Positions 1,043 through 22,928 of a stretch of 22,928 nucleotides of DNA are shown here, one piece after another. The position numbers and the translations under genes are program-made. The notes under the pieces were generated by a model. The model worked only from the letters and a program-made list of their open reading frames with translations. It had not been told where the DNA came from and ran no database searches. Within the stretch, counting starts at the first letter, position 1, and the number at the start of each line of letters is the position of its first letter. The DNA comes from Paraspadella gotoi (Eukaryota; Animalia; Chaetognatha), in contig JBJCIZ010000121.1 of the NCBI GenBank assembly GCA_051294375.1, positions 1-22,928 on the forward strand, read 5' to 3'.

Positions 1043-1115
1043 CGGACCTACCTTTCCTTTTCGAATTTCTTATCAATTTGTTGCATTTAATAATCAACTT
1101 ACCCTTTAGCTAAAG

Positions 1116-1448: not shown

Positions 1449-1539
1449 TAATTATGATCATTTCTTCATTATTATTGAACCTCACATTTTTTGTTGATAT
1501 TTACATTACCTGTTCCTTTATTAAGCTCATCGATAAGCA

Positions 1540-1884: not shown

Positions 1885-2136
1885 TATTTCATTGCATTGT
1901 TTGGCTCACAATTATTTGTCATTGGGTTTATTAATAAAATCATTGGTTGAATAGTTAATTGTCCATGTTCAAAACTTACCTTAACAGGGTATCTTTCCAA
2001 TAATCGCGACCGCGATAAAATTAAATTATTCCGAGACTATTTACGAATCTGAACTTTCAATACAAGTGTGACGGAGCAAAGTTCCAGGGGACTCGACGCA
2101 TCCGCATCTTTGAGTTCAAAAGACAACAAATTCAAG

Positions 2137-4062: not shown

Positions 4063-4075
4063 AAAGGGGGGAGAA
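4063..4075 (+). promoter_or_regulatory. Polypurine tract (PPT) of copy A
   Basis: AAAGGGGGGAGAA immediately followed by TG; conserved at 22752-22760. Confidence 0.75.
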
Positions 4076-5100
4076 TGAGATCCCTTTTTTGGAGAAAAAC
4101 TAATCAATCTTGAGTAAACAAGTCTTTTCAAGTCACATAATTTGTGCGGAGATAAACATGATTCGATCTGCAACCGCCAAGACGAGTTTCCATGGCAACC
4201 GGGCTAGTTAAAGGTTCCTGATTCAGCAGTGGAAAGGTTGACGGTGGGAGTGAACCAGTACAAAGACCGCTGACGAATCACCGACGGATCTGCAGATGGG
4301 ATCGCCGACGGGCTCGCAGATGGGATCACCGACGGATCGCAGATGGGACCGCAGATGGGATCGCGGACGGGCTCGCAGATGGAAGTATCGACGATGGTTG
4401 GGAATTTGCAGCCACGAAAGGGGGGAGTCAATGCAGCATCGCCGTATCGGGGAATGCAGCCTTTTGGACGGGGGGAGGAAAAAGGAGAAACGATAAACTT
4501 ACCTTCAAGATGACGCAGTTTGAAATGATTTAGATGTATCACTATGTCTGCGCCTTTCTTTAATTGGCAACCTTGACATACGAGTATTTACAATGTTCCC
4601 AAGGTGGGAGTGTAACAATGGGCGCTAACATAGTGGTACGAGTGGTGAATGAGATGGAACCGATGATCATCTGTTTCCAAATCTTCCCTTACTTTCGCCC
4701 CCTACCGTTCTTGGTTCCAGCTCATTCTCCAATGGAAGGCTGAATCGTAAACATCGAAAATAATAATTTTCTACTATTTTACAAAAATGTAAATATTTAA
4801 TTAAATATTATTATTATCTAATTATTATAACTTAAGAATTAATTAATAAATTAATTCTTCCTTCCATTCTAGGTTTGAACATTCATTCCTTGTTATTTTT
4901 GGAATTCGCGAAAATGAACTCGTCTTCTAAAATAACTGGATAGTTCTACATTAAGTGAATTATATTTAGGTATTATTAGTTTAGACTAGTTAATTTTACA
5001 TTCGAAACATTTTTTCGTAAATTTTAGTTAATTAGTTAAAATTAATTTAAGGATTAAATTTAGGATTTTTATAATTTATAATGTAAAACTAACAAAAGGT
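4076..5100 (+). repeat. LTR between copy A and the gag-pol unit (start supported, end approximate; may include leader)
   Basis: Begins TGAGATCCCTTT after the PPT; 4076-4248 is homologous but diverged relative to 22761-22928. The 3' CA end and PBS were not identified. Confidence 0.55.
4277..4382 (+). repeat. About 24-bp tandem repeat in the LTR (about 4.5 units)
   Basis: Units ATCACCGACGGATCTGCAGATGGG / ATCGCCGACGGGCTCGCAGATGGG / ATCACCGACGGATCGCAGATGGG / ACCGCAGATGGG / ATCGCGGACGGGCTCGCAGATGG. Confidence 0.9.
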
Positions 5101-5385
5101 AAACTTTCTTCGATAGTGGCTCTGCCACGAAATATCGGAGGAAGTACAAAGGAACCGCGGCGCGGAATTTAACCCGTCGCGGGCAAACTTCGCCAGTTGG
5201 GGACCTTTACTCACGGACGAAGTAGTCAGGGAAGAAACTGAGCGTACAAAAATCTGAATTTTCCCCCTTTCAGATTAAAAAACCCTCGGTAAAAAAAATT
5301 ACGGAAATCGAAAATATTTAAGCTAAGCTAATTCCTTCGCGGCGCTTCGCTTCGCTTCCAACGGATTTTCCCAAGGTTAGAGACT

Positions 5386-7179: not shown

Positions 7180-7363
7180 ACTTCGAAACGGGTGGACTGA
7201 CGACTCGAAAACTTGGTGGGCTCTTCGACACCTGACCATCCTCCCCACACCGAGCGTCGAATCAGCTGGAAATCAGGGTTTTGATAGAAAACAAATAAAA
7301 CCAAAACAAACCGTATTAATAATGATTATACTCTCAAGTGATCGATGAGAATCCTTGTTCTGA

Positions 7364-8533
7364 CAATACACATGCGCGTCGGCTCCGAATCGCAGCAAAT
7401 CGCCCGAAGAATGGTCATTGGCACAATTATGTGCCATCCAACTTCAGCAACAGGCCTTTTCTTTGATGAGACAGAAGAGACCGAAACTCAAATTTTCTGG
7501 ACGGGACCGTCGTGTCGATTTCGACAATCAGCTTGCTCTCTTTAACACTCTTTATAGTATCCCAGGAATAACCAATGAGATGCTGGTAGGAGAACTACGG
7601 GAGTACTTCGCAGGTGATGCTCTCATAATCATCCAACAGTATGAATTGGGGAGTGATTATGCTAGGTCGCTAAAAAAGATTAAAAAGGCGCTAAAGGTTC
7701 AATTTGGTAGGAAAGCTTATACAGCGAGACACCTATTAGACAATTTATTAAAAGGTGCGAAAATTAATAGCCGAGATTCGGCGGGTTTAAAAACGTTTAT
7801 TTTAGAATTAGAAAAAATCTATCTGCGAGCGAAGGAGACAAATAGAGAAAAGACGTTCGCAACCCAAGAGATTTACACTGAGATTTTGTCGAAAAAGGCC
7901 CCACATTTGGGAAATGCATGGGCTAAAAGAGCCATAAAAAAGAAAATGGAATGGTTAGAGAGAGAAACTGATGATGAAGACGATGAATGTGACCTTGACC
8001 CTACCTTTGAAACGTTTATCAAATTTCTCAAGTATACGGCCGAAATATCTGAAATGGGTTCCATTTACTCAGGATTCGGCGCTCCGAGCGAAGGCAAAAC
8101 GCCAAACGCGGGACCAACGGCGACGTCAACCCCAAAGCCGCATCGAAAATCATTCCAAGTTCGATTTGCAGCTGTCGCGGCAAAACCAACGAGATCCGGG
8201 CAGATGTCAAAAAGCCAGAGCAACTCGTCCATGAACACTACGCCGAAATTTCCCCATCCGAACGCCAACCCGACGACGCATGCCCCAAGAACCCCGTCGA
8301 CGACCATATGCTACATGTGCAGTGCGAACCACCGGCTGGAGGCTTGTAGGAAATATATCAATCTCGGAATCGAAAAAAGGTGGGATTTTATCAAAAAAAA
8401 CAGTCTATGCCATGTTTGCCTAAGGCGTGGCCATGTTACAAAGGACTGTAAGAGCCTATTAGGTTGCCGAAAGTGCGCCGGTAGGCATCATGTCTCTGTC
8501 CACCCAGAGACGCCGGCGGCGAACTCATCTTGA
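7364..8533 (+). CDS. gag: Gag core with three zinc knuckles (open frame; start codon not defined)
   Basis: Frame open from 7364. KLKFSG...F capsid-like start; CYMCSANHRLEAC, CHVCLRRGHVTKDC, CRKCAGRHHVSVH match the CX2CX3HX4C / CX2CX4HX4C / CX2CX3HX4H triple typical of BEL/Pao. Confidence 0.92.
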   Translation, partial: QYTCASAPNRSKSPEEWSLAQLCAIQLQQQAFSLMRQKRPKLKFSGRDRRVDFDNQLALFNTLYSIPGITNEMLVGELREYFAGDALIIIQQYELGSDYARSLKKIKKALKVQFGRKAYTARHLLDNLLKGAKINSRDSAGLKTFILELEKIYLRAKETNREKTFATQEIYTEILSKKAPHLGNAWAKRAIKKKMEWLERETDDEDDECDLDPTFETFIKFLKYTAEISEMGSIYSGFGAPSEGKTPNAGPTATSTPKPHRKSFQVRFAAVAAKPTRSGQMSKSQSNSSMNTTPKFPHPNANPTTHAPRTPSTTICYMCSANHRLEACRKYINLGIEKRWDFIKKNSLCHVCLRRGHVTKDCKSLLGCRKCAGRHHVSVHPETPAANSS

Positions 8534-8623
8534 CTTGCAGCCGCGTACGCCGTCACAGGGACATTCCGTCCCATCGTTCCCGTTATTATCGCAAACGGAA
8601 ACAAAACGGTGACGACGTACGCG
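8531..8623 (+). promoter_or_regulatory. Candidate stop-codon readthrough signal (UGA-C, 8-nt spacer, long stem)
   Basis: TGA 8531-8533; CGCGTACGCCGTCAC (8542-8556) pairs 14/15 with GTGACGACGTACGCG (8609-8623), enclosing two small hairpins. Confidence 0.65.
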
Positions 8624-11600
8624 CTCCTCGACTCAGGAGCAACTCGCTCCGCGGTCGCAACTTCTATCGTCAACAAATTAAATTTAAACCCTTATACATT
8701 GTTCACTAACCTTACTACTTATGATGCAACTTCACAAATTTGGCGAGACTTCGTAGATTTTGAAATAAGAAATATGGACAATACTTATTCAGTAGAGATT
8801 AAAAAGGCGATTGTCGGCAAAATCCTAACATGTGAAAGCGATAAACCCGTAAAGAATAAAGATATAAGCGAGTATGACTATATGAGAGATGTTGAATTCG
8901 TTGAATTGAAACATAACAATGTCGATTTGATCTTAGATGCAAGCCTCGCCTCGGAATGGATCGGAGGACCTACACGAATCGGACCGCCGGGTTTGCCCTC
9001 TGCCCTACATACCACGTTCGGTTGGACCCTAATTGGACCAAGCGAAAACAGACGCCAAGGAGAGCATATTATTAGTTGCCTTGACGCCAACCCTTCAAGT
9101 TTGGAAGAACTTGAATTCCAAATCTCAAAATTGGAAAAAATGGATTTTTTAATGAAAGAATCCGAACATTATTCGTCCGAGGTTAGTCATCCATCCGTTT
9201 TAGATCAATACGCGATAGAGCAACTGGAAGCTGGAATCTTTTTTAATATCTCTACAGGTCATTACAGCGCCCCCACACCATGGAAAAGAGGGCGAGAGGC
9301 AACCGCGAAAGAGTTCAAGAAAATTAGGGAGGCCACAATCGCAAACGCAAAAAAGAGAGCCATCAAAACAGCAGAAAAATTGGCAAAGGATCCAATTTTG
9401 AGGAAAGGAGTCTTCGAGACGATGCGCGAAAGCATGGAGGTTGGTTTTTCGAGTAAAGTAAAAATAGAAAATTTGAACGGCGAATTGCCAGAATATTACA
9501 CCCCATTGCATATAGTTACGCGTCCTGACAAGCCTGGCAAATTTCGGATTTGTCAGGACGCGGCCTCAAAAACTCGAGGTACATTTTTAAACGAACATTT
9601 AATAGCAGGCCCCGATAACCTAACTCCTTTGTTGGGCGTTTTAATGAGATTCCGGAGAAGGAAAGTAACTTTGTCAGCTGACATAAAAGGGTTCTTCCAT
9701 CAAATCGAAATCGATCCTGCTGATCGAGGGGCTTTTAGATTTTTCTGGTATAGCGACGAAAATATGACAAAACTCGAAACCCATCAAGCTAATGTCCACA
9801 TTTTTGGCGGCTCAGGCAGCCCAGGAGTAGCCAATTGGGTGATAAAGTATCACATGAAAAAAATCAAAGACGAAGTATCTCTCGAAGCCTTTCTTTCCGT
9901 TTTTCTCCAGCTTTACATGGATGATCTTCTGGACTCCTTTAATACGCCACAAGAAGCTCAACAATTAAGAATAGAACTTACTGACGCACTCAAACGCGGA
10001 GGATTCGAGCTTTGCAAATTTAAAAGCTCGGATCCACGGGTGCTCAAGGATGATCCCATTTCAACTGAAGCTCCTCCAATCGCTCTCCAAGAGGCAGATG
10101 AACTCACGGATGATCTCGAGAGGATAGCGGAAAACGCCGCGCCAGAAAGCCCAATGGTTGAAGATCACACAAGTAAGATTTTAGGAGTCGGGTTTAACGC
10201 TGAAAAGGATATATTTTTTATCCGTATTACGGAAAAGGCTAAAAATGAGGCTGTCTCTCGACGAGATTTCTTGAAATTGGTTGCAAGCGTCTATGACCCA
10301 CTTGGGTTTGTCGCACCATACATCCTTAAAGGAAGGTCTTATTTTCAAAAGGCGACAAATGACCAACTCACCTGGGATGAAAAGGTCCCAGAAGATCTTT
10401 TTAAAAAATTTGATAAGTGGAGAAAGGAAATGGAGAGTTTAAAAAGATTTACCTTTCCCCGATGGACATCTATATTAGGCTTAAATGTCGCAAAAACGCA
10501 ATTAATAGTTTTCGCCGATGCATCATCGACCGGATATGGGGTTGTTGCATACTTAAAAAAGATGAACCAGGAGGAAGACAAATGTCACGTCTCCTTATTT
10601 TACGCGAAATCACACGTTGTCCCATTGCAGATGCAAAGGACATTAGTTCCAGGTCAAGAAGACCACCTCGAGAGTATGCCTCGTTTAGAACTAAACGCGG
10701 CAAGGCTTGCAGCACAATCTAGAGACACCATAGTTAGAGAGTCGGGAGAAGAATTTTTCAGTATTGTAATGCTAACAGATTCAATTACGGTATTAAACTG
10801 GATCAATGACTACACCAAAAGATTCAAAACCTTCGAACATTTCAGGCTTAAAACGATACGAAATTTATCTCCTATTCAGGAATGGCGTCACGTCGAAGGA
10901 AAGGAGAATCCCGCCGACTTCACATCCAGAGGCCTGGACGCGAACGACAAAAAGTGGTCCATTTACCACCAAGGTCCAGCTTGGCTCCATCGACCAGAGA
11001 ATGAATGGCCAACGTCGAAATATCCAACCAAATCATCGGCGAAAAAAGAAACACCCAAAAGCAAAGAGAATGTCTGCGAAGAAGTTAATATGGCCGCGAT
11101 TCACGACGACTGCACATATTCCCCAATAGAACTGGTCGTCGTTAATGCCACTCGTGCTTACCCGATCCTTCTGCCTTCGGACTCCAAAGATTGGGCGTTG
11201 AAGATCACGGATAAAGTTCCGGAATGGCGACAAAAGGTGAGAAGAGTCGCTTACTTTACGAAAGCTGTACCGAAATTTTTAGAGTTTTTAAAAGGCAAAA
11301 AAGAAGGAAAGAGAATTAAAATTGAAAACATTTCACTTACCGCTGATGATTTTAAGAATGCAAGGACGAAACTATATCGAGCTATACAGCGAACCCATTT
11401 TGAAAAGGAATTCTACGAATTATTTAAAATGGGTATATTATCTCCTGATGCAAAAAGGGAACTAAGAGCTAAAAGCTCAAGAATGATCTCGTTAAGCCCG
11501 TTCATTGATTCGGAAAACTGCATCAGAGCGGGCGGCAGACTTGGCAACGCCAAAGATATGAAATTTGAAACAAAACACCCTCTAGTACTGCCGAAAAACG

Positions 11601-12727
11601 ATGAAAGCGTGAACTCTATAATTAGGCACCACCATGAGCAATTAAAACATGCTGGAGGCTCCGCGACCTTTCACTCATTAAATCAAAAATTCGCTTTATT
11701 AGGAGGACGAGCAAATGTGGATGCCATCATCCGAAAGTGTCTACGGTGTCAAAAGGCTCACAAAAGCCCAACGCCGCAACAAATGGGACCCCTTCCGGGA
11801 TTTCGAGTGGAAGCAGCCATTCCCTTCAAAACCACGGGCGTCGATGTTTTCGGGCCTTATAAGGTAAAAAACGCCGGCAGAGGTTATAACAATAAACACG
11901 TCCTCCTTCTCACGTGCATGACCACGAGGGCAGTAGTATTTGAAGTACTGAAAGACATGTCAAGCATGTCAGTCATATCAGCCTTAATAAGATTCCGTTC
12001 ACATTTCCCAGGCTTGGAACGACTCGTCTCAGACAACGGAACAAATTTTAGAGGGATCGACAATGAACTCAAAAGGCAATTGAGAACGATTCGCCAAGAC
12101 GAGAAGTTTACAGAATTCATCGCCTCAAACGATATCAGGTGGGACTTTGGCCCTCCACACACCCCCCATTGGGGAGGAGTGTGGGAACGCCTTGTAAAAA
12201 GCACTAAAAAACATATTACAACCTCCTTACCCCAAGAACCCGATCTCGATACCTTTGTTACAATTTTATGCGAAATCTCCGCCATATTAAACAGGAGACC
12301 AATCACCCAGGCTCCAGCAAATCCCAATGAGATTATCGCGTTAAGTCCTGAAAATTTTTTATACCCGTACTTACACGCTTCAACGGCTTTAACGCTTCTC
12401 CCTTATGCTCCTACAGTTGGTGACACATTGCGAGCGTCCTGGAAGACCGTGCGTGACACAGCGGACAGATTCTGGATTCGATGGAAGCAGGAATATCTCA
12501 CGACCCTACGGAATAGGAGCAAGTGGACGACCTCGTCGGACAGCCTCAAAATCGGAGACATTGTCCTAATCGAAGAGGAGAACACACCTCGCGACATCTG
12601 GAGAGTTGGACGAATTCAGAAACTCGTAGGAGAAGATATCCACAAACGAGAAGCGATGGTGAAAACTTCAAACAAGAAGGAGATCCGTCGCCATGTGAAA
12701 ACTTTGATTAAACTCGAAGTCGATTAA
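8534..12727 (+). CDS. pol: Pol polyprotein: aspartic protease, reverse transcriptase, RNase H, integrase
   Basis: RPIVPV...TYALLDSGATRS (PR); LSADIKGFFHQI and LYMDDLL (RT); FADAS, PRLEL, TDS, NPADFTSRG (Pao-type RH); H..H...CLRC zinc finger, GVDVFGP, SDNGTNF, GGVWERLV (DDE IN); FWIRWKQEYL C-terminal motif. Uninterrupted and in frame with gag. Confidence 0.97.
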   Translation, partial: LAAAYAVTGTFRPIVPVIIANGNKTVTTYALLDSGATRSAVATSIVNKLNLNPYTLFTNLTTYDATSQIWRDFVDFEIRNMDNTYSVEIKKAIVGKILTCESDKPVKNKDISEYDYMRDVEFVELKHNNVDLILDASLASEWIGGPTRIGPPGLPSALHTTFGWTLIGPSENRRQGEHIISCLDANPSSLEELEFQISKLEKMDFLMKESEHYSSEVSHPSVLDQYAIEQLEAGIFFNISTGHYSAPTPWKRGREATAKEFKKIREATIANAKKRAIKTAEKLAKDPILRKGVFETMRESMEVGFSSKVKIENLNGELPEYYTPLHIVTRPDKPGKFRICQDAASKTRGTFLNEHLIAGPDNLTPLLGVLMRFRRRKVTLSADIKGFFHQIEIDPADRGAFRFFWYSDENMTKLETHQANVHIFGGSGSPGVANWVIKYHMKKIKDEVSLEAFLSVFLQLYMDDLLDSFNTPQEAQQLRIELTDALKRGGFELCKFKSSDPRVLKDDPISTEAPPIALQEADELTDDLERIAENAAPESPMVEDHTSKILGVGFNAEKDIFFIRITEKAKNEAVSRRDFLKLVASVYDPLGFVAPYILKGRSYFQKATNDQLTWDEKVPEDLFKKFDKWRKEMESLKRFTFPRWTSILGLNVAKTQLIVFADASSTGYGVVAYLKKMNQEEDKCHVSLFYAKSHVVPLQMQRTLVPGQEDHLESMPRLELNAARLAAQSRDTIVRESGEEFFSIVMLTDSITVLNWINDYTKRFKTFEHFRLKTIRNLSPIQEWRHVEGKENPADFTSRGLDANDKKWSIYHQGPAWLHRPENEWPTSKYPTKSSAKKETPKSKENVCEEVNMAAIHDDCTYSPIELVVVNATRAYPILLPSDSKDWALKITDKVPEWRQKVRRVAYFTKAVPKFLEFLKGKKEGKRIKIENISLTADDFKNARTKLYRAIQRTHFEKEFYELFKMGILSPDAKRELRAKSSRMISLSPFIDSENCIRAGGRLGNAKDMKFETKHPLVLPKNDESVNSIIRHHHEQLKHAGGSATFHSLNQKFALLGGRANVDAIIRKCLRCQKAHKSPTPQQMGPLPGFRVEAAIPFKTTGVDVFGPYKVKNAGRGYNNKHVLLLTCMTTRAVVFEVLKDMSSMSVISALIRFRSHFPGLERLVSDNGTNFRGIDNELKRQLRTIRQDEKFTEFIASNDIRWDFGPPHTPHWGGVWERLVKSTKKHITTSLPQEPDLDTFVTILCEISAILNRRPITQAPANPNEIIALSPENFLYPYLHASTALTLLPYAPTVGDTLRASWKTVRDTADRFWIRWKQEYLTTLRNRSKWTTSSDSLKIGDIVLIEEENTPRDIWRVGRIQKLVGEDIHKREAMVKTSNKKEIRRHVKTLIKLEVD

Positions 12728-13258
12728 AAAACATTGAATTTATAAGAATTTGAAGTAAATTTTTTCTTGCTTCAACTACTTATCGTGCAAAAAATTTAAA
12801 AAATTGTACCTGGTTTATTATTGATCGTCAACTACTATGTTTCTAACCGAACGAGTACGTAATCATTTATTAGATAACTTGCCCGTTGTTTGGGAAATAC
12901 TTACCTTTGAAATTCAAAACCGCTGGCTGAAACAAATAATTAGTTAATCCTTGAATTAATGATGAGTACACATATTTAGTTCGAATGGCCAATTTATTTA
13001 CTTGGACGCCGCGTTTAAAATTTGTCTCGCAATCAAGTACAAGAGCATTTGTTGTCCAACAAATCCTATGAGCAACAGACGAACACAAAGCCGATTAGTT
13101 GATTAAGTAATTAGTTATTGCTGAGCTAGATTCGCAGATTAGCAAAAAACAAAGATTAGTAAGAATCTGATACTTATCTGTTTACTTACCTGAAACCGAA
13201 TTATTCAATAACACTTATTTTTCTTACCCAGTATTACCTGTTTGAAGCACATTTCAAA

Positions 13259-13798
13259 ATGGAACCGGCGAACACGATCACAATTGAAGATGAAACTCTG
13301 AGTCAGAATGAGTCATTACCTGCTTCCTTGGGGACAAAGTCGACGCCGCCAGCCTCTCCAGTATTTTCATCGCAGCCAGAATCCGAGGCCGCACCGCCAT
13401 CAAGCTCCGCGTCAATGTCAGAGTTCAAAGACGAGGACATCATCGAAGTCTTGGAAATCTCGAAATGGGCTCCACCATCATCCCCGTCTTCATCCGAGGA
13501 CGAAAAGATCGTTCTAACGAAATCAACGAGTTCGGAATGCCTCGTCGAACTGCGAGAAAAGTGGGAAAAAGAAAGAAAGCACGAATTCCTCCGTCAGCAA
13601 CGAAAAAGGAAAGAAGCGAGGGAGCGCGTACGAATTTGGGAGAAAGAAGTAAAGCGCCTACGAGAAGACCTACAATGCGAAAGAGAGCGAAAAGTGAAGG
13701 AAAAACTGCGTGAGGAAATACGAGGAATCAAAAAGGAAAAGAGGAATCGTGCTCTCCTCGCTAAGATCTATGAAATGGAGAACTCGGAAGAGATTTGA
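13259..13798 (+). CDS. Accessory protein (179 aa): Ser/Pro/acidic N-half, K/R/E coiled-coil C-half
   Basis: ATG ORF after an AT-rich spacer with ACTTACCTG (13184) and an AG acceptor; biased but protein-like composition. Confidence 0.7.
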   Translation: MEPANTITIEDETLSQNESLPASLGTKSTPPASPVFSSQPESEAAPPSSSASMSEFKDEDIIEVLEISKWAPPSSPSSSEDEKIVLTKSTSSECLVELREKWEKERKHEFLRQQRKRKEARERVRIWEKEVKRLREDLQCERERKVKEKLREEIRGIKKEKRNRALLAKIYEMENSEEI

Positions 13799-13941
13799 AT
13801 TTGAATTCTGAATCATTTAACTACCTGTTCGGTTTTTGTTCAATCTTTCTTTTTCTTTTCAAGCAGTAAAATTTAGTCAAGCCATTCAGAGTCGCTTCCA
13901 AACTCGAGGCCGCCCGCTGGGTTTTCTCTGCTCAAGTCGGC

Positions 13942-14043
13942 AACGTCCATCTCGGCGACGGAATTTCTTTCGGCGCTTCCATTTCAGCCCGAAGCCGCGA
14001 ACGTCCATTCGGCGACGGAATTTCTTTCGGCACTTCCATTTCA
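13942..14043 (+). repeat. Direct repeat, 2 x 44-45 bp
   Basis: AACGTCCAT(C)TCGGCGACGGAATTTCTTTCGGCRCTTCCATTTCA at 13942-13986 and 14000-14043. Confidence 0.9.
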
Positions 14044-14179
14044 ATTGTCGCGATGTCGTCGGTAAGGAAATACAGAACAATCCATAAATCGATTCATTTG
14101 ATTAAACATCAGTATTTAAACTTAGGATGCAGCAGCCGAGCGCGCAAGGACGCTAGCAGCAGCGACCTGCAGAAGACCA

Positions 14180-14744
14180 ATGGCATGGGTTAGGCCATTC
14201 CATCCGGATGAGCCAAACCCTCCGGGGGTGGACGATCCGCCACTCAGGGCCAGGATTGAATCTCCAATTGCAGCGCCACTCAGGGCCAGATCTTCGGCTG
14301 CAGCGCCACTCAGGGCCAGGATTGAATCTCCAATTGCAGCGCCACCAGGGTCAGGATTCGATAGCCTGCAGCGCCACCCAGGGTCAGGATCGAACCTGCA
14401 GCGCCACTCGGCAGGACTCGAACCTCCAGCTGCAGCGCCATCAGGTCAGGATCGAACCTCCAGCTGCAGCGCCATCCAGGGTCAGGACGAACCTCCAGCT
14501 GCAGCCCATCCAGTGGTCAGGATCGAACCTCCAGCTGCAGCGCCCGCCAGGTCAGGATCGAACCTCCAGCTGCAGCGCCATCCAGGGTCAGGATCGAACC
14601 TCAGCTGCAGCGCCACCACAAATCTGGACTTATCCGCCAACTCCTGAACCGCAGTACTACAGAGGCTCGCCCGAACGATTCGGGTACCCACCTCTCCTAG
14701 ACGAAGACTCGGACTCGGACATCGTAAGGAAATTTATTATATGA
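14180..14744 (+). CDS. Possible repeat-containing Pro/Ala-rich protein; frame unstable across the minisatellite
   Basis: Two overlapping open frames (14180-14647, 14208-14744), RIEPPAAAP repeats, AATAAA at 14781. Openness may simply reflect the GC-rich repeat. Confidence 0.35.
14237..14616 (+). repeat. GC-rich minisatellite, about 30-36 bp unit, about 11 copies
   Basis: Consensus GCAGCGCCATCCAGGGTCAGGATCGAACCTCCAGCT with small indels between units. Confidence 0.92.
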
Positions 14745-15062
14745 AAAATGCTAGTAAACATTTATTATCAAAAAGATGCTAATAAACAAATGTTCCCTAG
14801 GAGATTACCTACGTCTCAAACCCACGGGCGAGAATCATAAGGCGCGAGGCGGACCACGACTCCGAAATCGCTAGGAACGTAACTTCAACGATCCGTGACT
14901 TGCGCGTATCGCTGTCGCGCGGACGGTCACCAGCTCGGGAGCAGGACGCCAGACCGCGCATCCCGGTCAAAGAGAGATTAGGCTGGCGCGTCAATTAAAA
15001 ACAGGAAAACAGCAATTAAACTGAAAACGTGGATAAGAAACTAATGAGTTAAACGACCAGTC

Positions 15063-15168
15063 GTTGTGATAACCAAATTATTTTTCTATGTATACAATCC
15101 GCAAACATAGTTGTGATAACCAAATTATTTTTCTATGTATACAATCCGCAAACATAGTTGTGATAACC
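15063..15168 (+). repeat. Perfect 47-bp tandem duplication plus 12-bp partial third unit
   Basis: GTTGTGATAACCAAATTATTTTTCTATGTATACAATCCGCAAACATA at 15063 and 15110; GTTGTGATAACC at 15157. Confidence 0.95.
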
Positions 15169-15281
15169 TGATTATTTGTTCATGTCCTTCTTCACATATT
15201 TGTTAGTTTACAGACTCCGTTGCGACAGCATAACAACAAGATTTAACATTTTGACCATTCAAAACGTATTGAGTCCGAGAA

Positions 15282-15593
15282 ATGGAGAAGAAAACTGTAT
15301 CAAATGCACAATCGGCGCCATCGACGCCGCCAACGCCACACCGGCCGGAACCCACGATGAACTTTATCTTCGCGGAAATACCTCTGCCTCGACGCCGCTT
15401 AGCCACGCCACTTTCGGGAACGAAGATTGGGTTCATTATCCCGTCTCACGTCATGTCGACGGACACATATTGCAAAACTCCATGAACAGTATTTCGCGCA
15501 ATATTCTCACGTTCATTGTTAGCAGCGCCTCGTTATTCGGAGGAAGAGGAAAGGAAACAAGAGAGATGGCTTAATGATTCAGCGGCGAATTAA
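15282..15593 (+). pseudogene. Possible small accessory gene with internal TGA at 15483-15485
   Basis: GC-richer island between AT-rich spacers. The ATG frame continues past the TGA as TVFRAIFSRSLLAAPRYSEEEERKQERWLNDSAAN to TAA at 15591-15593. No homolog in the window. Confidence 0.3.
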
Positions 15594-15843
15594 CTGCATT
15601 CCCTTCCTTTATTTATTGAATTATTTTCAGTATATTACTAGAACTCACCTTTAAAGTTGGCGACGCCGGAGACTTGAAATCTGAAAACCTAACACGAGGA
15701 GAAATCTAATCCGAAAACGAAGACCCAGCGCGAACTTCGGTGACGAAATTATGAGATTAATGAACAAATATTTAATGCAAACTTACCCGATGATAACAAA
15801 ATAATAATAAAATTTATCTACTTATAGAAGCCCTCGGCGAATC

Positions 15844-16083
15844 ATGTCATCCCGACGAGTTCTGTTCAATAGGATCATCGACCTCATTCCGATGGAACAT
15901 TTGGCCGAATTCTACGATAGATATAACCATTGGTATGATAAGACGATGCTTCGGATGGATCAAATAGAAGCTCTAAGTTTATCGGAGATAAACAAAGAAC
16001 TCATACTTCAGTTCGTCATGAAGAGAAGACGAGAAATGCTTCAAAAAATCATCATGGAACTGCGAGACAGAGCTGAGAAATAA
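15844..16083 (+). CDS. Accessory protein family gamma (79 aa)
   Basis: RIIDLIPMEHLAEF...HWYDKT resembles the next ORF; TTATAG acceptor upstream. Confidence 0.75.
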   Translation: MSSRRVLFNRIIDLIPMEHLAEFYDRYNHWYDKTMLRMDQIEALSLSEINKELILQFVMKRRREMLQKIIMELRDRAEK

Positions 16084-16166
16084 TTATGGAATCGATTAAT
16101 CAAAAAACTTACCTATTTGTTCGTGAATTATCCGATTAACTTACCTTTAGTTTATTATCAGCGAAA

Positions 16167-16463
16167 ATGCAAAGGGAACGCATCGAGATAGTTGGAGAAC
16201 TTCATATGCGGATTTTACTCGAACTCATCCCAATACGGTACAAAGAAGAATTTGTCATCGAATTTGGACGTTGGAAAGAGCGAACGGAAAAGAAACTGAA
16301 TGACGCAGCAGACGAACTGATGATACAGTATGCCCCAAGCCGCGTTCCCACTGCATCATTGGAGATATTGGATCACATCGAACGAGATGCTCTTGAAGAC
16401 ATTCACGCTATTATTCGGGATTTTACTTATCGTGCTCGCACACAAGACGAAGAACAAAGATGA
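16167..16463 (+). CDS. Accessory protein family gamma (98 aa)
   Basis: RILLELIPIRYKEEF...RWKERT; ACTTACCT at 16139 and ATCAG acceptor just before the ATG. Confidence 0.78.
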   Translation: MQRERIEIVGELHMRILLELIPIRYKEEFVIEFGRWKERTEKKLNDAADELMIQYAPSRVPTASLEILDHIERDALEDIHAIIRDFTYRARTQDEEQR

Positions 16464-16551
16464 ATATGCTGTCTCAATTGGCAAAAATTGATAATATCGC
16501 TGACAATTTCGTAGTAATTGATTAAAATTATGGTGTTCGTTATTTAGGAGA

Positions 16552-16758
16552 ATGACCTCATTTAATGGTTATACGTACGGTAGATTTGGCATTTGCTATA
16601 ATGAAACTCATGGAGTCCCGTATTCTGATCCTGAGAGAGCAAGTGCAAAACGATCCCTGATTTTGCTGAAAAGCAAAAAGATGATTATTCCGGTGTCCAC
16701 TCCGAATCAAAAGATAACAAACTCAATGCAAAAAGTGGAAAAAACCCCGGATGGATAG
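16552..16758 (+). CDS. Possible small accessory ORF (68 aa)
   Basis: Fills a slot in the array, with TTTAG just upstream of the ATG; no paralog seen. Confidence 0.4.
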   Translation: MTSFNGYTYGRFGICYNETHGVPYSDPERASAKRSLILLKSKKMIIPVSTPNQKITNSMQKVEKTPDG

Positions 16759-16840
16759 TTATTCATTATTGCAATTTATTACCTGTTCAAGTTATTATTT
16801 CGAGTATGTTTTTTTTTAAAAAAAAGATTCAGCCCACAGG

Positions 16841-17179
16841 ATGTCTGACAAAGTCGTTTGGCTATGGGACGAATGGAGAAGTCTGAAGCTTCAGAAAGAA
16901 AGTGAGAACAGAAACAGAAAGATTCTGGACGTAATCCTCCGAGAAGCCGAAGCGAATTTATCCTACAAACCTGACTGGGTAAAAGAGATCCTCCTCGGTG
17001 AGAACAAAGGTCCGAAAGACGAAGCCCAAAAGGCAATTCGTCTTGCAAAAGACTGGATAAAGACGGCGGAAATCCTGAAAAAAGAAAAACCCGGAAGAGA
17101 AAAAACTTTCGAAGCCATCATAAAGATGATGCAGGAGCAGATCGGGAAGCAGGAAGTCATTCTAAAAAACATTTCATGA
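16841..17179 (+). CDS. Accessory protein family alpha (112 aa)
   Basis: Shares EW..L, P[DE]W and K.EA...[IV]R.AK.W.KTA..L with 17768-18112. Confidence 0.82.
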   Translation: MSDKVVWLWDEWRSLKLQKESENRNRKILDVILREAEANLSYKPDWVKEILLGENKGPKDEAQKAIRLAKDWIKTAEILKKEKPGREKTFEAIIKMMQEQIGKQEVILKNIS

Positions 17180-17277
17180 ATAAATAAATCTATATGAACT
17201 AATGCAAGAGAATACTGAAAGTGCAGATTGAGTTGTTTTAATTTTGTCGTTATGTACTCGCAGCGTTAACAGATACG

Positions 17278-17661
17278 ATGCAAAGCGGATCTTCACCGAT
17301 TTCAATCTACTCCAGAGAACATCTTGAGCTCTGCGTTTTTAAGCGAAGCAAGACGGACGAACTGGAAGAACGTTTACCAGGCTGCGTCGAAAAGTGCATT
17401 GAGTTAGCGCAAAGTTATTCCACAAAAATCGAAAAGTTGCGCAAGATCATCGCCAAGAAAAAGGCAAAAAACCCGGCAACAAATGTGAAAGAATTCACCG
17501 AAAAAATCAAAAAGATGGAAGAAGAGTTCCCGACCATAGAACGATGGAAGGAAATATACCTGAGCAGAGGCTGCATTTTTAGTCGTGAGAGTCTGGAATC
17601 GGTCAAGGATAAACTTTCCCCGAGAGAAACGGTCGAGGTCGTGGGATTTTCAGTGATGTGA
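17278..17661 (+). CDS. Accessory protein family beta (127 aa)
   Basis: LPGCVEKCIEL ... IERWKEIYLSRGCIFSRESL, clearly similar to 18184-18504. Confidence 0.82.
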   Translation: MQSGSSPISIYSREHLELCVFKRSKTDELEERLPGCVEKCIELAQSYSTKIEKLRKIIAKKKAKNPATNVKEFTEKIKKMEEEFPTIERWKEIYLSRGCIFSRESLESVKDKLSPRETVEVVGFSVM

Positions 17662-17767
17662 AATCAGAAAAGATTTAAATGAACTTATGAATTATTAATT
17701 CATTGTCACGAAATATATTCATTTAATAGGATATTCATATTTACAGCTAATACTTACCCGCTTCAAA

Positions 17768-18112
17768 ATGTCCGATCCAGTAGGCGGTGCTCAATACTTA
17801 CAGGAATGGAAGTATCTTTACGACAACGAAGGGAAAATGAAGGACAAATATTTCGGAAGGAATTTGAACGTAAAGGAGCAAGAGGCGAGGATCAAGCGGC
17901 ATCCGGAATGGTTCAGGAATGGACCTGAAGACTACAAGATAAAGCTAAAAGGAGAAGCGGAGGAAAGTGTCCGCAGCGCGAAAAGCTGGAGAAAAACCGC
18001 TGTGATGCTCAGGTTTCATCAGAAGGAAAAGACCGAAATTTATGATGAAATCTATAAACTGATCAATGACTACATTGAAGAGAAAGAAAGGGAAATTCGA
18101 ATCTTATCGTGA
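17768..18112 (+). CDS. Accessory protein family alpha (114 aa)
   Basis: Paralog of 16841-17179; EIYDEI is also shared with 18612-18965. Confidence 0.82.
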   Translation: MSDPVGGAQYLQEWKYLYDNEGKMKDKYFGRNLNVKEQEARIKRHPEWFRNGPEDYKIKLKGEAEESVRSAKSWRKTAVMLRFHQKEKTEIYDEIYKLINDYIEEKEREIRILS

Positions 18113-18183
18113 AAATTGGTTCAATTTCCAAATTGAGAAATAGTTGTTTATCGTGTTTTTTTTTTAGTTACACCCAGAGCAAA

Positions 18184-18504
18184 ATGCAAGGTTATTGCGG
18201 ATACTCGGCTCATTGCTACAAGGATTTTCGAGAATTCGTTGTGAAACGAACCGAGGAATTCAATAATGAAGCTCCCGATTGCGTCGAAAGGTGCCTTGAT
18301 CTTATCAAAAGGTATTCAGGGGAACTGAACCAACTGCAAGAGGCCGTCAAGACATCAGGAGATGAAGCGAAAACCCATCATGAGCGAATCGAAACTCTAA
18401 AAGAAGAAATATCCTTCGTTGAGAAGTGGAAAAGAATCCGGCTCGCTCAAGGTCACATCTTCACGTATGAGAGTCTTGGAACATTAACCGAGGAACTGCC
18501 GTAA
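18184..18504 (+). CDS. Accessory protein family beta (106 aa)
   Basis: ATG at 18184 after a T-run/TAG acceptor; APDCVERCLDL ... VEKWKRIRLAQGHIFTYESL. Confidence 0.82.
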   Translation: MQGYCGYSAHCYKDFREFVVKRTEEFNNEAPDCVERCLDLIKRYSGELNQLQEAVKTSGDEAKTHHERIETLKEEISFVEKWKRIRLAQGHIFTYESLGTLTEELP

Positions 18505-18611
18505 AAAGGACAATTCAACTTACCTTCGAGTTTGATAAGATTATCTCCATGTTTAAATCCACTCTTATTCAAAGTTTAAACTGATTCATTTAGTCTAGCC
18601 ATTACCATACG

Positions 18612-18965
18612 ATGTCCCGAGTAAAGTCTATCGCCGAAATTCAAGAGGAAATCGCCCGCGATTGGGAAAAGGCGAGAAACATGGACGATTACTATCAAAG
18701 GAACTCTATTGTGGAAAGCATAGTATTTCGGGAACACGAAGTACGAATCCGAAAGAAAAAGGAGGAAAGAGAAGAAAGGATGAAAGGTAGCAAAGCCATC
18801 GAAGCATCCGAAATCTACAAGGATATCCAAGAGTTCGAAAGCCGCCGAAAACTAGCGATGGATGCAAAACGCAAAAGGCCAAATCTCGGAGAGATCTACG
18901 ACGAAATCGGAGATAGAGCAAAGAAACTACAAGCGGAGGCGAAAGAACGTTTAATGAAAATTTAA
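18612..18965 (+). CDS. Accessory protein, tentatively family alpha (117 aa), copy B
   Basis: Counterpart of 8-361. Confidence 0.87.
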   Translation: MSRVKSIAEIQEEIARDWEKARNMDDYYQRNSIVESIVFREHEVRIRKKKEEREERMKGSKAIEASEIYKDIQEFESRRKLAMDAKRKRPNLGEIYDEIGDRAKKLQAEAKERLMKI

Positions 18966-19040
18966 AAAAAAAAAAAAAACTTTTCTTTGATCGGCTCATT
19001 AAACCCCGGTGTCAATTTACTTACCTTATTCAGTTACGAA

Positions 19041-19343
19041 ATGTCGTTAAATTCCGAGTTCCGCATTCGAGAAATGCGACTCTACGCTGGTTATCTGATT
19101 CCAAAGTCGTTGGAGGAAGCTTTACAAAAATTAAGAGGTTACGAAAAAGAACTTATTCGAGAAGAGCAAGAGATCGAAAAAGGAAAGAAAGGAGAAAAGA
19201 CAAAACGAAGTCTCGAATGCCACGAAGGCAGGGCAAAGTACCTACAAGATCATATTGAGATGCTTAGGAAATGGCCGGATATTCTGGAGCAAGAGGGAAA
19301 GATATTCATGTCCAGAACCTATGAAATTCCTGAGTATTGTTAA
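19041..19343 (+). CDS. Accessory protein family beta (100 aa), copy B
   Basis: ATG at 19041 gives the same length as 431-733; ACTTACCT at 19019. Confidence 0.87.
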   Translation: MSLNSEFRIREMRLYAGYLIPKSLEEALQKLRGYEKELIREEQEIEKGKKGEKTKRSLECHEGRAKYLQDHIEMLRKWPDILEQEGKIFMSRTYEIPEYC

Positions 19344-19396
19344 ACATTTATATTACTTACCTTTAAAAAAATTTAGTTTTGTAATAGTACTACGAA

Positions 19397-19657
19397 ATGT
19401 CTGAAGTGAGAAGAAACTTCAAAAAGTATGCCAGAGAAAACGCGATATTCTGGCTGCCTACAAGTCTCGAAGATGCATTGGACGAGATACAAAAGAGGGA
19501 AGACAACCTGGTTCGGAGGATTCAAGAATATGGGATCCATGGCGCGGATGAGCGCGAATTCAAGACAATCGCACAGCTTACCAGATGGGCGAAAATCCTG
19601 GAAGAGCAAAGAGAAATCTTTTCGCTGGAAACCAAAACTATAATGAATCTTCATTAA
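19397..19657 (+). CDS. Accessory protein family beta (86 aa), copy B
   Basis: Intact counterpart of 779-1042; LPTSLEDAL ... RWAKILEEQREIFSLET. Confidence 0.87.
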   Translation: MSEVRRNFKKYARENAIFWLPTSLEDALDEIQKREDNLVRRIQEYGIHGADEREFKTIAQLTRWAKILEEQREIFSLETKTIMNLH

Positions 19658-19720
19658 CTTATTTTTTTTTAGTCGCCACAATATTGATTCAGATGAATAA
19701 TCAATTTATTTTAAGCTAAA

Positions 19721-20056
19721 ATGAATATCAAAGCTTTCAACGAAATCCGGAACCAAATAAACAGAGATTGGAATGACCTGGACCAAAGACCCTGGAGCCA
19801 GGGAAAGACAAAATCCATCATCAGCTTGATGATCAGAGAAGACGCATTATGGAATCTGAGAGAAGAGGAGATCAGAAAACAAGTCCCACGAACGATTGCG
19901 GAAGTTAGAAAAGCAACGGAGAGATCAAAAAATATTATATGGCTGATCGGAGAAGCATTAAAGGTCAAGCCTAAAAACGCAACCATCTACCTCCAATTCA
20001 TCAAGGCGGAAAAAGAAAAGATGGAGAAACTCGAAAAGGAAAATCACGTTCGATGA
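19721..20056 (+). CDS. Accessory protein, tentatively family alpha (111 aa), copy B
   Basis: Counterpart of 1116-1448. Confidence 0.85.
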   Translation: MNIKAFNEIRNQINRDWNDLDQRPWSQGKTKSIISLMIREDALWNLREEEIRKQVPRTIAEVRKATERSKNIIWLIGEALKVKPKNATIYLQFIKAEKEKMEKLEKENHVR

Positions 20057-20170
20057 ACTCATAATCGGTCTTCTTTATTTAGTTGCTCCTTATTGGCGTG
20101 AATTATCATTCATTAACTTTTCCTTTTCGTCATTATTAACAATTCTTGTTTGTTTATAAAGGCAGCGGAT

Positions 20171-20521
20171 ATGTCAAAAAGTCAGGACTCCGACCATTGG
20201 ATTCGCGGCCATTGTCAACTGACTTATATCATGAAGAATCGGATGAAGCAAGGGATACACCAAAGAATGCCGAGTTCCGCTGAGGAGTCATTTGAGCAGC
20301 TCAGAGAGAACTGTTCAGAGATGGCGAAAAACGAAATCGTCATGGAGATGAAGCTTGCCGAAAATGCCCAAGCGGACGTAGAAGTTGAAAAGAAAAGAAT
20401 TCAAATCCTCAACGACGAGAATACAAACCTTAGCCTCTGGGTAAAATTCAAGCTTCAACGGGAGGATTTATTTTCCGAAAGGACTTTAGACGACATCACA
20501 ACAGAATCCTGTGATAATTGA
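20171..20521 (+). CDS. Accessory protein family beta (116 aa), copy B
   Basis: Counterpart of 1540-1884; MPSSAEESF ... LWVKFKLQREDLFSERTL. Confidence 0.85.
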   Translation: MSKSQDSDHWIRGHCQLTYIMKNRMKQGIHQRMPSSAEESFEQLRENCSEMAKNEIVMEMKLAENAQADVEVEKKRIQILNDENTNLSLWVKFKLQREDLFSERTLDDITTESCDN

Positions 20522-20740
20522 CATTTATTTCATGTTGTCTGGTTTATTGATATAATTGTCATTGGCCCCTTTATTGAAATTGATTGGGTAATCGATTGTT
20601 TACTTACTTTAACAGGGCATCTTTCTGATAAAAAGTGTGATCACACTTTAAACTTGAACTCATTGAAATAAACTTGCGATATTTTAAGCGACGCGCGACC
20701 GGAGCGGGACTTCACTCAGTCCGAAAATAGCAAATTCAAG

Positions 20741-20831
20741 GTGAAATATATTCAATACTTACCTGAAAAAATAATATAATTCAAGATATATAACAATCAT
20801 TTAAATACTCACAAAAATTACCTGTTCCCAG
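20741..20831 (+). other. 91-nt 5'UTR spliceosomal intron, absent from copy A
   Basis: CAAATTCAAG|GTGAAA...TTCCCAG|ATGCTT in B versus contiguous CAAATTCAAG|ATGCTC at 2127-2142 in A. Confidence 0.8.
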
Positions 20832-22214
20832 ATGCTTAATTCCCGCGACACCATGTGGAGTAATGACGAACTCCTGAATCTCTCTCTCGACGTACCGGGA
20901 GAAGATTACGCTTCCATATTCCCGTCAACACCTCTTTTCGAAACGCAGAATTGCGCAAATCCGGACGACATAGCGGGCTTCAACGGAAAGGACCCGCTAA
21001 GTCTCAACACACCTCCAAATCCTAACTCCCTCTTCGATCAAAGTATCCCTCCCACAATTAGTACACCCATTTCATCTCTTATGGAACTTCCAGAGGTACT
21101 TAAATTTAAAATTGTTGGGTTATTATTGTTATGTGCTTATACTCACCTGCGATATTACTTATAGCCAACTCTTCTTCAACGTCAGCCATTGGACAACGCG
21201 TTGGAAGATTCTTCATCAAGCGACGGAACGTTGCCCTACGAGATACCACCCACGCCTAAAACCCCACCCAACTTATCTACGACGCTCTTTGATCCGCCAA
21301 CCCGAAGAATGCCGCCAATTCCGATGAAAAACGGGGCAATAGATACATCTCGGTGCAATAACAATCTCAGCCTCCTTGCATTCAACGACGAAAAGATTCC
21401 GTTCATCGTCGGGACGACCGACGAATGGAAGTTCAGGCCGGATGTCTCGCTTTCGGGCAAAATCGGAAAGTGGATCAAGACATGCCGACGCAATTGGCGG
21501 AAAGTTGCAAAGAAACGCGGCATCGATTACGTCAAGTTCGTCTTCGAGAATTTTGGTCTTCTCGTCAATCCCAGCGAGCCTAAAGTCGAAAGACTTCACC
21601 TACCTTCAAATGGCGTTCAAAGGGCGACGATAGCCAAAAGAAACGTCGTCATCAGAAAACCGGCGCCATCAGCTTCATCATCGTCCATCGTCGACTCGGT
21701 GACGCTCGGGGCGCCGTTGGCATCGTCGTCATTTAACGACATATCGGCGGAGTCAAAGAGACCGCGAAGCGATGAAGTTCGTCGTCTACTCGCCGAAAAA
21801 GAGACCTTAAAGTTAGAACGCGACAAATTCAAGGATCGCGCGGCAAAATTGGAGGAAGAACTCGCTCAGGAAAGGAAGTTACGTGAAAAGGATCGCGACC
21901 GCTTTGAGGAGAAAATCAACAAGATAAGAGAAGACTCCGATAAACGTATCGATCGCTTAACAGAGACCCACCTTCACGAGATCAAGAGCTGGCGAGAGGC
22001 CCTTTGCGTTCCCCAACCGTCAAGTTCCCACTTACCTCAAAAAAGTAAAGAGAAAAGTCGTGAACTTCCCAAAATGCGTGTACATAGTGAACCGTTCAAA
22101 ATCGCAGACACTCGTCCCCACTTACCTGTTTTTGATCCCCCACCTCATTTGCAACATCTGACGAAACCCCCACGTCAATCCCCACCCCCTCGTAAAATAC
22201 AAAAAAAGTATTAA
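20832..22214 (+). CDS. Two-exon 437-aa Pro-rich/basic/coiled-coil protein (exon 1 20832-21095, intron 21096-21164, exon 2 21165-22214)
   Basis: The GAG|GTACTT...TTATAG phase-0 intron joins two ORFs in frame, at the same position as in copy A. Exons are conserved while the intron has diverged. Basic WIKTCRRNWRKVAKKRG segment, long coiled coil, basic C-terminus. Confidence 0.85.
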
Positions 22215-22751
22215 AAAAATAGTTACTTACTCTGTACATGTTTATCTTTGAAACCGTCAGGCTGATTTGTATTATAAACAATCAAATTTAATTAACTGAC
22301 GGCTAAAGTCTTACCAACTTTACATTATAGAACATTATCATTTACTTTCCTTTCGTTGAACAACTATTGATGATACTTAATGCTTCTATATAAATAGGAT
22401 TATTTTATTTTATTGATACCTGCTTCCTCATACAAGCAAAATTATTCATGGAATTGATATTCACTTACCTCCTCGTAGAGTTATCTGTTCATTTAACTCC
22501 TCGTGGAAATATAAATAGTCACTTACCTTTTCGCGTATATAATTAGTCATCTAATTAATACTTACCTACCTTTCGTACGTACAATTACTTATCCGATCGA
22601 TATGAAGCAATATGCATAATATAAATGAGAATTTGCTCTCCTGTTCCCCTCTTCTAACAATAAAATTGGACAACGTAATAAAGTAGAATTTAATTTCAAA
22701 TAAGAGATAGTTGAGAAAGGACAAGGTCAAATTTAATTACCCCTCACAAAT

Positions 22752-22760
22752 GGGGGAGAA
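22752..22760 (+). promoter_or_regulatory. Polypurine tract (PPT) of copy B
   Basis: GGGGGAGAA followed by TGAGATCCCTTT, as at 4067-4087. Confidence 0.75.
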
Positions 22761-22928
22761 TGAGATCCCTTTATTAAAGCTGAGTTCCCAAACTAAACCC
22801 GAGTAAATTCAAGCGAATCACATAATTTGTGTGAGGATAATTAAATCCGATCGAGACGGCCGAGACGCATTCCCTGGGCCACCGAGTTGCTGAGAGTTCC
22901 TGGTTGATGCGGGAAAGATCAACGGTGG
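22761..22928 (+). repeat. Start of 3' LTR (truncated by window end)
   Basis: Homologous to 4076-4248 (TGAGATCCCTTT, GAGTAAA, TCACATAATTTGTG, GTTCCTG, GGAAAG, ACGGTGG) but with many substitutions. Confidence 0.75.

Follow-up and report, generated by a model that had tools for sequence, protein, structure and literature searches.

Bel/Pao-type retrotransposons with long terminal repeats (LTRs), which make up the Belpaoviridae, are described as elements of 4.2–10 kb with one to three genes in the profile of the International Committee on Taxonomy of Viruses (ICTV) (PMC8742986), and env is known among them (PMC13524379). Here we analysed a stretch of 22,928 nucleotides (nt) from the chaetognath Paraspadella gotoi (contig JBJCIZ010000121.1), referred to as the window, which carries an element exceeding this range: the unit from LTR start to LTR start (4076 to 22761) measures 18,685 nt, or ~19.7 kb including a putative LTR of ~1 kb, and holds ~14 extra open reading frames (ORFs). 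Since size and gene number lie beyond those described, we class it as a variant of the Bel/Pao type. Nine of the extra ORFs, the main subject of this study, are assigned below to two families of small proteins, alpha and beta.

The class assignment was made on Pol. Pfam matches comprised RVT_1 (7e-11, 345–473), Peptidase_A17 (1e-32, 551–725), an integrase region (999–1186) and DUF5641 (3e-21). Pol starts with a protease DSG motif, and its order of protease, reverse transcriptase (RT), RNase H region and integrase fits Bel/Pao. PF05380, the Pao peptidase family, was present in 120/120 of the Pol relatives listed, out of 176 at E≤1e-20; among those listed, the closest were at most 46% identical and came almost exclusively from assemblies in ENA or JGI, and those with names ranked lower and were mostly animal. 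By these domains the element is an LTR retrotransposon of Bel/Pao type with an intact pol.

Two families of small genes downstream of pol

The region from pol to the 3′ polypurine tract spans 10 kb and contains 14 well-formed sense ORFs and two doubtful ones (14180 and 15282). The 14 are those starting at 13259, 15844, 16167 and 16552, the nine alpha and beta ORFs and a two-exon gene at 20832. A sequence-only reading of this DNA had proposed nine ORFs belonging to two alternating families, and all nine were found with the starts it gave (Table 1).

For the beta family, the N-terminal motif of the P-x-[CS]-x-E type was present in 5/5 members as proposed, while the C-terminal one had to be corrected, its spacing being a constant W-x9-[IL]F and not W-x(6-8)-[IL]F. 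Homology was examined with profile hidden Markov models (HMMs) built without the tested ORF and its sister copy (see below), against a null of 200 seven-residue-block shuffles. All five betas are homologous, each scoring between 25.6 and 47.0 bits with 0/200 shuffles as high. Reversed beta sequences reached 2.7–10.4 bits. The eight non-beta ORFs examined scored from −1.4 to 12.4 bits, values equalled or exceeded by 9–147 of their 200 shuffles. Similarly, an HMM made from beta3–5 alone detected beta1 and beta2 at 26.2 and 23.0 bits (0/200 shuffles).

The alpha family stood in part. Relatedness of alpha1 and alpha2 (33% identity, z=11) and of alpha3 to both (22.9 bits, 0/200) was recovered, while alpha4 is only weakly linked: it scored 4.1 bits on the alpha1+2 HMM, a value equalled in 100/200 shuffles, and was connected through alpha3 (12.1–14.2 bits, 2–6/200), whose own score rose to 41.6 bits when alpha4 was added. 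The split between families is blurred by a cross-signal, beta1 scoring 13.6 bits on the alpha3 HMM and 12.9 on the four-sequence alpha HMM (0/200 each), which is probably due to a common coiled-coil or charged-helix make-up. Paralogs within families are very divergent, with 12–36% identity. Their order, alpha-beta-alpha-beta-alpha-beta-beta-alpha-beta, is that described in the sequence-only reading, with one extra beta that breaks strict alternation. Of the 126 orders possible for four alphas and five betas, 5 place a beta directly behind each alpha (p=0.04, a modest value for a pattern noticed post hoc).

Conservation and selection in sister copies

The left part of the window is occupied by the 3′ end of an upstream sister element, 72–73% identical in nucleotides to 18612–20488 and 20830–22214 of the main element. 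This copy is decaying, as seen from a premature stop in beta4 (968–970) and a frameshift near 2160 in the last ORF; the main copy is without visible break. Amino acid identities between the two are given in Table 1. Synonymous sites differed at 64–77% in the five genes compared. The ratio of nonsynonymous to synonymous substitution (dN/dS), obtained by the Nei–Gojobori method from two sequences and blind to single selected sites, was 0.15 for beta3, 0.03 for beta4, 0.16 for alpha4 and 0.15 for beta5; for alpha3 it was not computable (pN 0.08, pS 0.77, saturated). Hence the five alpha and beta genes with a sister copy are under purifying selection. The most conserved of the five is beta4 (91%, dN/dS 0.03), though it has no alpha in front.

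Further copies came from contigs of several runs. Those of run X1 cover most of 12700–22745 with no changed letter; they may be the window's own source and are not counted as independent. Among the matches listed, other contigs in X1, X5, X7 and X8 match piecewise at 80–90% and in the same order; many of the pieces have their first base at an ATG or a few bases away from one (16164, 16552, 16841, 18183, 19393 and 20827), and alpha2 is nearly devoid of sister-family matches at 80%. One sister-family contig of 4,230 nt has pieces matching alpha1, beta1, beta2, beta3 and beta4, and measures 2,184 nt from the end of alpha1 to the start of beta4, versus 2,205 nt in the window. Several families have the array in common and at least one keeps its length. 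Since order and spacing are kept in a sister family, the array is old and stable, with no running arms race. A search of JGI metagenomes with Pol found two short loci, none with an accessory region, and viral contigs searched with beta4 and Pol gave no match.

Traces of tandem amplification

The proposal that the array grew by old tandem amplification followed by diversification is borne out by the homology detected with HMMs, by synonymous sites near or at saturation between sister elements and by a DNA trace of block copying. The alpha1-beta1 and alpha2-beta2 blocks aligned above the null (73 versus a maximum of 44 in 30 shuffles). Three other block pairs exceeded their own null maximum by just 3–5 points, and none of 28 spacer-to-spacer pairs had a P below 0.02. 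The closest paralogs are alpha1 with alpha2 and beta1 with beta2. In the beta tree, beta1 and beta2 clustered (85/83) and were joined by beta5, with beta3 and beta4 placed elsewhere, a topology that carries a long-branch warning; the alpha tree left the deciding fork open. Taken together, the sequences suggest that both families are probably the product of old tandem duplication of an alpha-beta block of DNA, with a single further beta besides. Copying of DNA with two neighbours yields alternation and matching trees by itself, and congruence of alpha and beta trees therefore cannot decide whether neighbours pair. On this reading, alternation is a footprint of array growth and no proof that neighbours bind.

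Properties of the alpha and beta proteins

AlphaFold2 models were made for beta1 (from 7 sequences) and alpha1 (from 6 sequences), and both proteins are, as modelled, generic all-helical hairpins. The nine proteins contain 33–48% charged residues. No membrane segment was detected, the maximal 19-residue Kyte–Doolittle mean being 0.52 among the nine ORFs and 1.01 among 19. With high charge and no hydrophobic segment, the proteins would therefore be soluble and intracellular, neither envelope nor FAST-like.

Searches of databases turned up no homolog of either family. In the ESM Atlas the best value for beta1 was 0.82, a lead only, and alpha3 had no usable match. PDB sequences returned coiled-coil noise only (best E 0.018 and 0.0049), Foldseek on viral models with beta1 found nothing at E≤0.001, and Rfam nothing at a meaningful score. 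Of the known families of paired hairpins, Pfam WXG100_2 matched alpha1 only, below threshold (E 0.046, 14.1 bits versus a cut-off of 27). The sole HMMER match of the beta profile among 1.84 billion representatives, a Thr/Ser/Glu repeat protein of 1,597 amino acids (aa), was rejected as low complexity.

Acceptor-like sites in front of start codons

TTYAG was found at most 30 nt before 10/19 start codons, versus 1.58 in base shuffles (0/2000), and before 2/19 on the other strand. YAG occurred within 20 nt of 14/19 starts where 8.1 were expected (P 0.0025). The start-site test covered five patterns at three widths, and all 15 combinations gave P<0.04. A purine at −3 was present in 18/19 starts. 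Spacers of 45–114 nt with an acceptor-like site before the genes fit an operon resolved by spliced-leader trans-splicing. Under the scanning mechanism of eukaryotic translation, 14 genes cannot be served by a single LTR promoter. The simplest reading of these sites is likely one message per gene, made by splicing to each acceptor: one long LTR transcript would be joined to each of them, either in cis from a common donor or by host spliced-leader trans-splicing. In run X8, RNA by guess and possibly DNA, no clean splice joint was seen among the 15 of 19 joints listed.

A strand-biased complement of the 5′ splice site

In 6,945 nt of non-coding DNA we counted 26 copies of ACTYACC(T), which is exactly complementary to the consensus of the 5′ splice site, and none of its own complement (the coding mask used for this count is off by 1–3 nt at a few ORF ends). 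The expectation was 1.25 in second-order Markov simulations, with a maximum of 5 in 200. Over the whole window, GGTRAGT was present 34 times on the minus strand and 0 times on the plus strand. The motif is concentrated in spacers and 3′ tails, with 6 copies in 570 nt and 4 in 547 nt, infrequent in the LTR (one in 1,038 nt) and absent from the leader. It was not enriched in coding DNA of gag-pol or of the main array; it was enriched in that of the upstream array (6 versus 1.43, 0/500). In both copies of the last gene the motif is kept 19 nt ahead of the sense intron's AG, and it also lies upstream of alpha1 in one sister family, with loose ends. In its flanks, T occupies +5 in 30/48 cases, and +6 is T in 20, G in 13, A in 12 and C in 3; these flanks read as the complement of MAG/GTRAGT, not as a branch point followed by a pyrimidine tract. 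A yeast-type branch point can be dismissed as the origin of the motif, since ACTRACC was counted 0 times and ACTYACC 26 times. Minus-strand acceptor patterns were not enriched (15 versus 10).

By analogy, the motifs may be unpaired antisense donors that would cause antisense or read-through RNA to be retained in the nucleus and degraded, a reading to which we assign somewhat under an even chance; lone 5′ splice-site motifs have this effect on RNA in human cells (PMC4380460). A little less probable is that they would act on the sense strand, as elements that would pair with a leader RNA donor or as branch sites, like the nematode Ur element. The Ur element pairs with the 5′ splice site of the leader RNA. 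That the motif is a promoter signal with a direction, or a trait of the host as a whole, appears unlikely.

Weighing the explanations of the array

The reading that we favour, at close to an even chance, is that the nine ORFs serve an outsized Bel/Pao element as accessory genes, that their families arose by block copying and that their products are soluble helical-hairpin binders made from their own spliced messages. Inside the cell they would bind host or element proteins. Their role would be to manage the RNA of the element in the host, by exporting its unspliced genome, a task that CERV performs for Cer1, or by blunting small-RNA silencing, and the paralogs would have been kept as each drifted to its own target. 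Several results weigh against this. The beta alignment found no homolog at E≤1 among 548 candidates of 47–223 aa and the alpha alignment none among 1,797 candidates of 60–205 aa, while the VIA wide structure search returned common hairpins only, at best Z 8.2 (root-mean-square deviation (rmsd) 1.9, 61 residues) and Z 9.3 (rmsd 1.5, 58 residues). A strong sense-strand donor (GGTRAGT) occurs nowhere in the window, and TTYAG(T) could also be the initiator of internal promoters, of the arthropod type. For alpha1, beta1, alpha2 and beta2, which are without a full sister copy in the window, selection rests on pieces from sister contigs. Finally, the isoelectric point (pI) of all four alphas is 8.7–9.8 and that of 4/5 betas 5.1–6.8, and a beta stands behind every alpha, which fits pairing equally.

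Pairing in its strict form would make each alpha and the following beta cognate obligate heterodimers, two hairpins joined in a four-helix bundle, with pairs diversifying together. We consider this rather unlikely. The order with a beta behind every alpha (5/126 orders) agrees with it, as does the mutual closeness of alpha1 to alpha2 and of beta1 to beta2, but the same order and matching trees are expected from block duplication without any binding, and the alpha tree leaves the deciding fork open. Helical hairpins are modelled in both proteins, and alphas are basic where most betas are acidic or neutral; this charge contrast nevertheless fails for alpha1-beta1 (pI 9.3 and 8.9) and for sister alpha4-beta5 (7.8 and 8.1). 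Divergence is similar for alpha4 and beta5 (63% and 62%) but unlike for alpha3 and beta3 (86% versus 67%), and beta4, with no alpha before it, is yet the best conserved.

A more far-reaching combination, which we regard as quite unlikely, would turn the element into a 14-gene retrotransposon operon: the LTR transcript would be cut by host splicing into single-gene messages, cognate alpha-beta heterodimers would each act against their own silencing or export factor, and ACTYACC would serve as an RNA-level device, either through U1-dependent antisense retention and decay that starves small-RNA defence or by recruiting spliced-leader RNA to the acceptors.

The sequence-only reading had also raised an arms race with host silencing. 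In this explanation the genes are an arsenal aimed at silencing factors of the host and now growing under positive selection, which paralogs at 12–36% identity and the fast change of alpha2 (almost no sister-family match at 80% among the matches listed) might suggest. This part was not upheld: the pairwise signal is purifying, with dN/dS of 0.03–0.16 between lineages, gene order is stable across families, the array length is constant in a sister family, and no sign of current positive selection was seen. We hold the arsenal to be improbable. Less probable still are stacked toxin-antidote pairs that would give the element selfish drive in its host, an explanation to which small adjacent genes, repeated pairs and purifying selection would conform; the proteins have no enzymatic or pore-forming feature and no membrane or signal segment, and several related families in one organism would presumably spread antidotes widely. 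An envelope substitute (fusogens of the sORF2 or FAST-like kind) or neutral decaying DNA deserves hardly any weight, even if the ORFs sit where env sits in other Bel/Pao elements (PMC8742986) and the upstream copy carries a stop and a frameshift, for neutrality is excluded by low dN/dS in the genes tested and there is no hydrophobic segment, whereas sORF2 has a transmembrane domain (10.1101/2025.03.14.642691).

Layout of the element and further genes

The coordinates of all features are collected in Table 1.

Table 1. Features of the window and of the elements in it, in order of position (pLDDT, predicted local distance difference test; identities to the sister copy are at the amino acid level)
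Feature	Position	Strand	Remarks
3′ end of upstream sister element	8–3507	+	same last six genes as the main element, same order
Sister alpha3	8–361	+	
Sister beta3	431–733	+	
Sister beta4	779–1042	+	
Sister alpha4	1116–1448	+	
Sister beta5	1540–1884	+	
Sister last ORF	2137–3507	+	
Polypurine tract and inferred LTR (TG at 4076)	4063–5116	+	tract 4063–4075; LTR common to upstream and main elements
gag region	5386–8533	+	two ORFs, 5386–7179 and 7418–8533; in-frame TGA at end
pol	8534–12727	+	protease DSG, RT, Peptidase_A17, integrase, DUF5641; same frame as gag, behind TGA
ACTYACC(T) motifs	12728–22760 and 362–4075		in spacers, intron and 3′ tails; an unexpected signal
Minus-strand GT, examples	12904, 13189, 15648, 15786, 16112, 16144, 17757, 18523, 19024, 19360, 20762, 21146, 22468, 22526, 22565	−	
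Accessory ORF, 179 aa	13259–13798	+	N-terminal half Ser/Pro-rich, C-terminal half charged, coiled-coil-like; no Pfam match
gamma pair (probable family)	15844–16463	+	ORFs 15844–16083 and 16167–16463
Accessory ORF, 68 aa	16552–16758	+	sister-family pieces start at 16542–16552
alpha1, 112 aa	16841–17179	+	modelled as five helices, C-terminal hairpin (pLDDT 66.5)
beta1, 127 aa	17278–17661	+	modelled as helix, antiparallel hairpin (35–98) and short helix (pLDDT 79.5)
alpha2, 114 aa	17768–18112	+	33% identical to alpha1
beta2, 106 aa	18184–18504	+	assigned by leave-one-out HMM
alpha3, 117 aa	18612–18965	+	22.9 bits on alpha1+2 HMM; 86% identity to sister copy
beta3, 100 aa	19041–19343	+	47.0 bits; 67% identity to sister copy
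beta4, 86 aa	19397–19657	+	no alpha in front; 25.6 bits; 91% identity to sister copy
alpha4 (weak member), 111 aa	19721–20056	+	linked solely through alpha3; 63% identity to sister copy
beta5, 116 aa	20171–20521	+	29.7 bits; 62% identity to sister copy
Last accessory gene, 438 aa	20832–22214	+	two exons; predicted phase-0 GT-AG intron 21096–21164
Polypurine tract and 3′ LTR start (TG at 22761)	22752–22928	+	window end cuts LTR after 168 nt

The LTR starts at 4076 and 22761 are 69% alike over the part that aligns with 22735–22928, the LTR end at 5116 is inferred and no target-site duplication is visible. A candidate for the primer-binding site, which in Bel/Pao elements matches tRNA-Arg or tRNA-Gly, begins with TGG at 5117. 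Two diverged elements stand head to tail with one common LTR, and since its start is just 69% like that at 22761, the junction may be a recombinant between subfamilies. GC-rich short repeats lie at 4255–4400, inside the inferred LTR. The gag ORF 7418–8533 encodes three Cys/His knuckles and has a weak DUF1759 match (E 0.013, below cut-off). Between the two gag ORFs, a gap of 238 nt with a change of frame (7180–7417) could be an intron or mark a separate gene. A TGA at 8531–8533 followed by CT splits gag from pol within one frame, and the residues that follow are near-identical in a distant metagenomic relative, L001, where the corresponding site is 1043–1045. All of the 13 closest Pol relatives checked begin at the protease region. 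The arrangement suggests that in this clade the stop is likely passed by conserved read-through.

Short tandem repeats occur between pol and the array (13934–14043, 14238–14618 and 15065–15175), one set within the overlapping frames 14180–14647 and 14208–14744. The stretch 15374–15485, in the frame of 15282–15485, is kept in sister families and may be a further small ORF. The two gamma ORFs are alike (Smith–Waterman z=4.8, 0/300 shuffles), and sister contigs match from 16164; judged by this similarity, the ORFs of 15844–16463 probably form a third family that arose by duplication, upstream of the alpha-beta array. In the last gene, the frame is open across the predicted intron, whose position is the same in both copies (21096–21164 and 2400–2472), and both exons have a dN/dS of 0.08 versus the sister copy. 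A sense-strand intron is in this way retained within a retroelement. The product is a basic protein in which an aromatic-rich core is conserved and a coiled coil is present; it had no Pfam match.

Comparison with known systems

Some 14 orphan genes have been kept, in families stable across lineages with saturated synonymous sites, and must act in the host cell beyond self-copying of the element. The nine small soluble paralogs can readily be probed for binding against one another, and the strand bias of donor motifs, 26 to 0, provides a handle on how the element shapes host sense and antisense RNA processing. In the open-access literature we found no Bel/Pao element with a paralog array of this size; Repbase, Dfam or supplements could hold such a family. 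In one large survey, 15 kb was set as the upper bound for full-length elements (PMC3118150), and elements like this one could therefore be missed.

With described Bel/Pao elements, the present one has in common the Gag Cys/His knuckles, the Pol order, Pao-specific Pfam families, a polypurine tract and a putative LTR of ~1 kb (PMC8742986). It differs by its ~19.7 kb and ~14 extra genes, against 4.2–10 kb and at most env, and by an in-frame stop between gag and pol, which are continuous or overlapping in the others (PMC8742986).

The planarian Ty3/gypsy elements Burro/GYPSM1, together with Ogre and fish foamy-like endogenous retroviruses (ERVs), are likewise giant LTR elements enlarged by accessory coding (PMC6431247). 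Those are, however, gypsy-like or retroviral, with recognisable domains (BIR, MATH, BCL2, env) mostly within a polyprotein (PMC6431247), whereas the additional genes of the present Bel/Pao element are short, numerous orphan paralogs. As for single accessory proteins, CERV of C. elegans Cer1 is made from a spliced message and exports genomic RNA (PMC10309623), and in the Drosophila MDG1 group sORF1 (~110 aa) has a nuclear role and sORF2 acts in transmission (10.1101/2025.03.14.642691). These elements have one or two such genes and no paralog array, and no Pfam or database match links alpha or beta to them. Retand, a plant gypsy element, resembles ours in its long region from pol to LTR (2.9–6.6 kb) with extra ORFs and tandem repeats; its ORFs are antisense, in contrast to the 10 kb of sense ORFs found here (PMC11963269). 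In the SL2 operons of nematodes, co-directional genes lie 50–200 nt apart in C. elegans, versus 45–114 nt here, with acceptor-like sites in both (10.1101/642082). Extra ORFs in LTR elements are thus already known, and what appears new here is the presence of duplicated accessory families in a giant Bel/Pao-type element.

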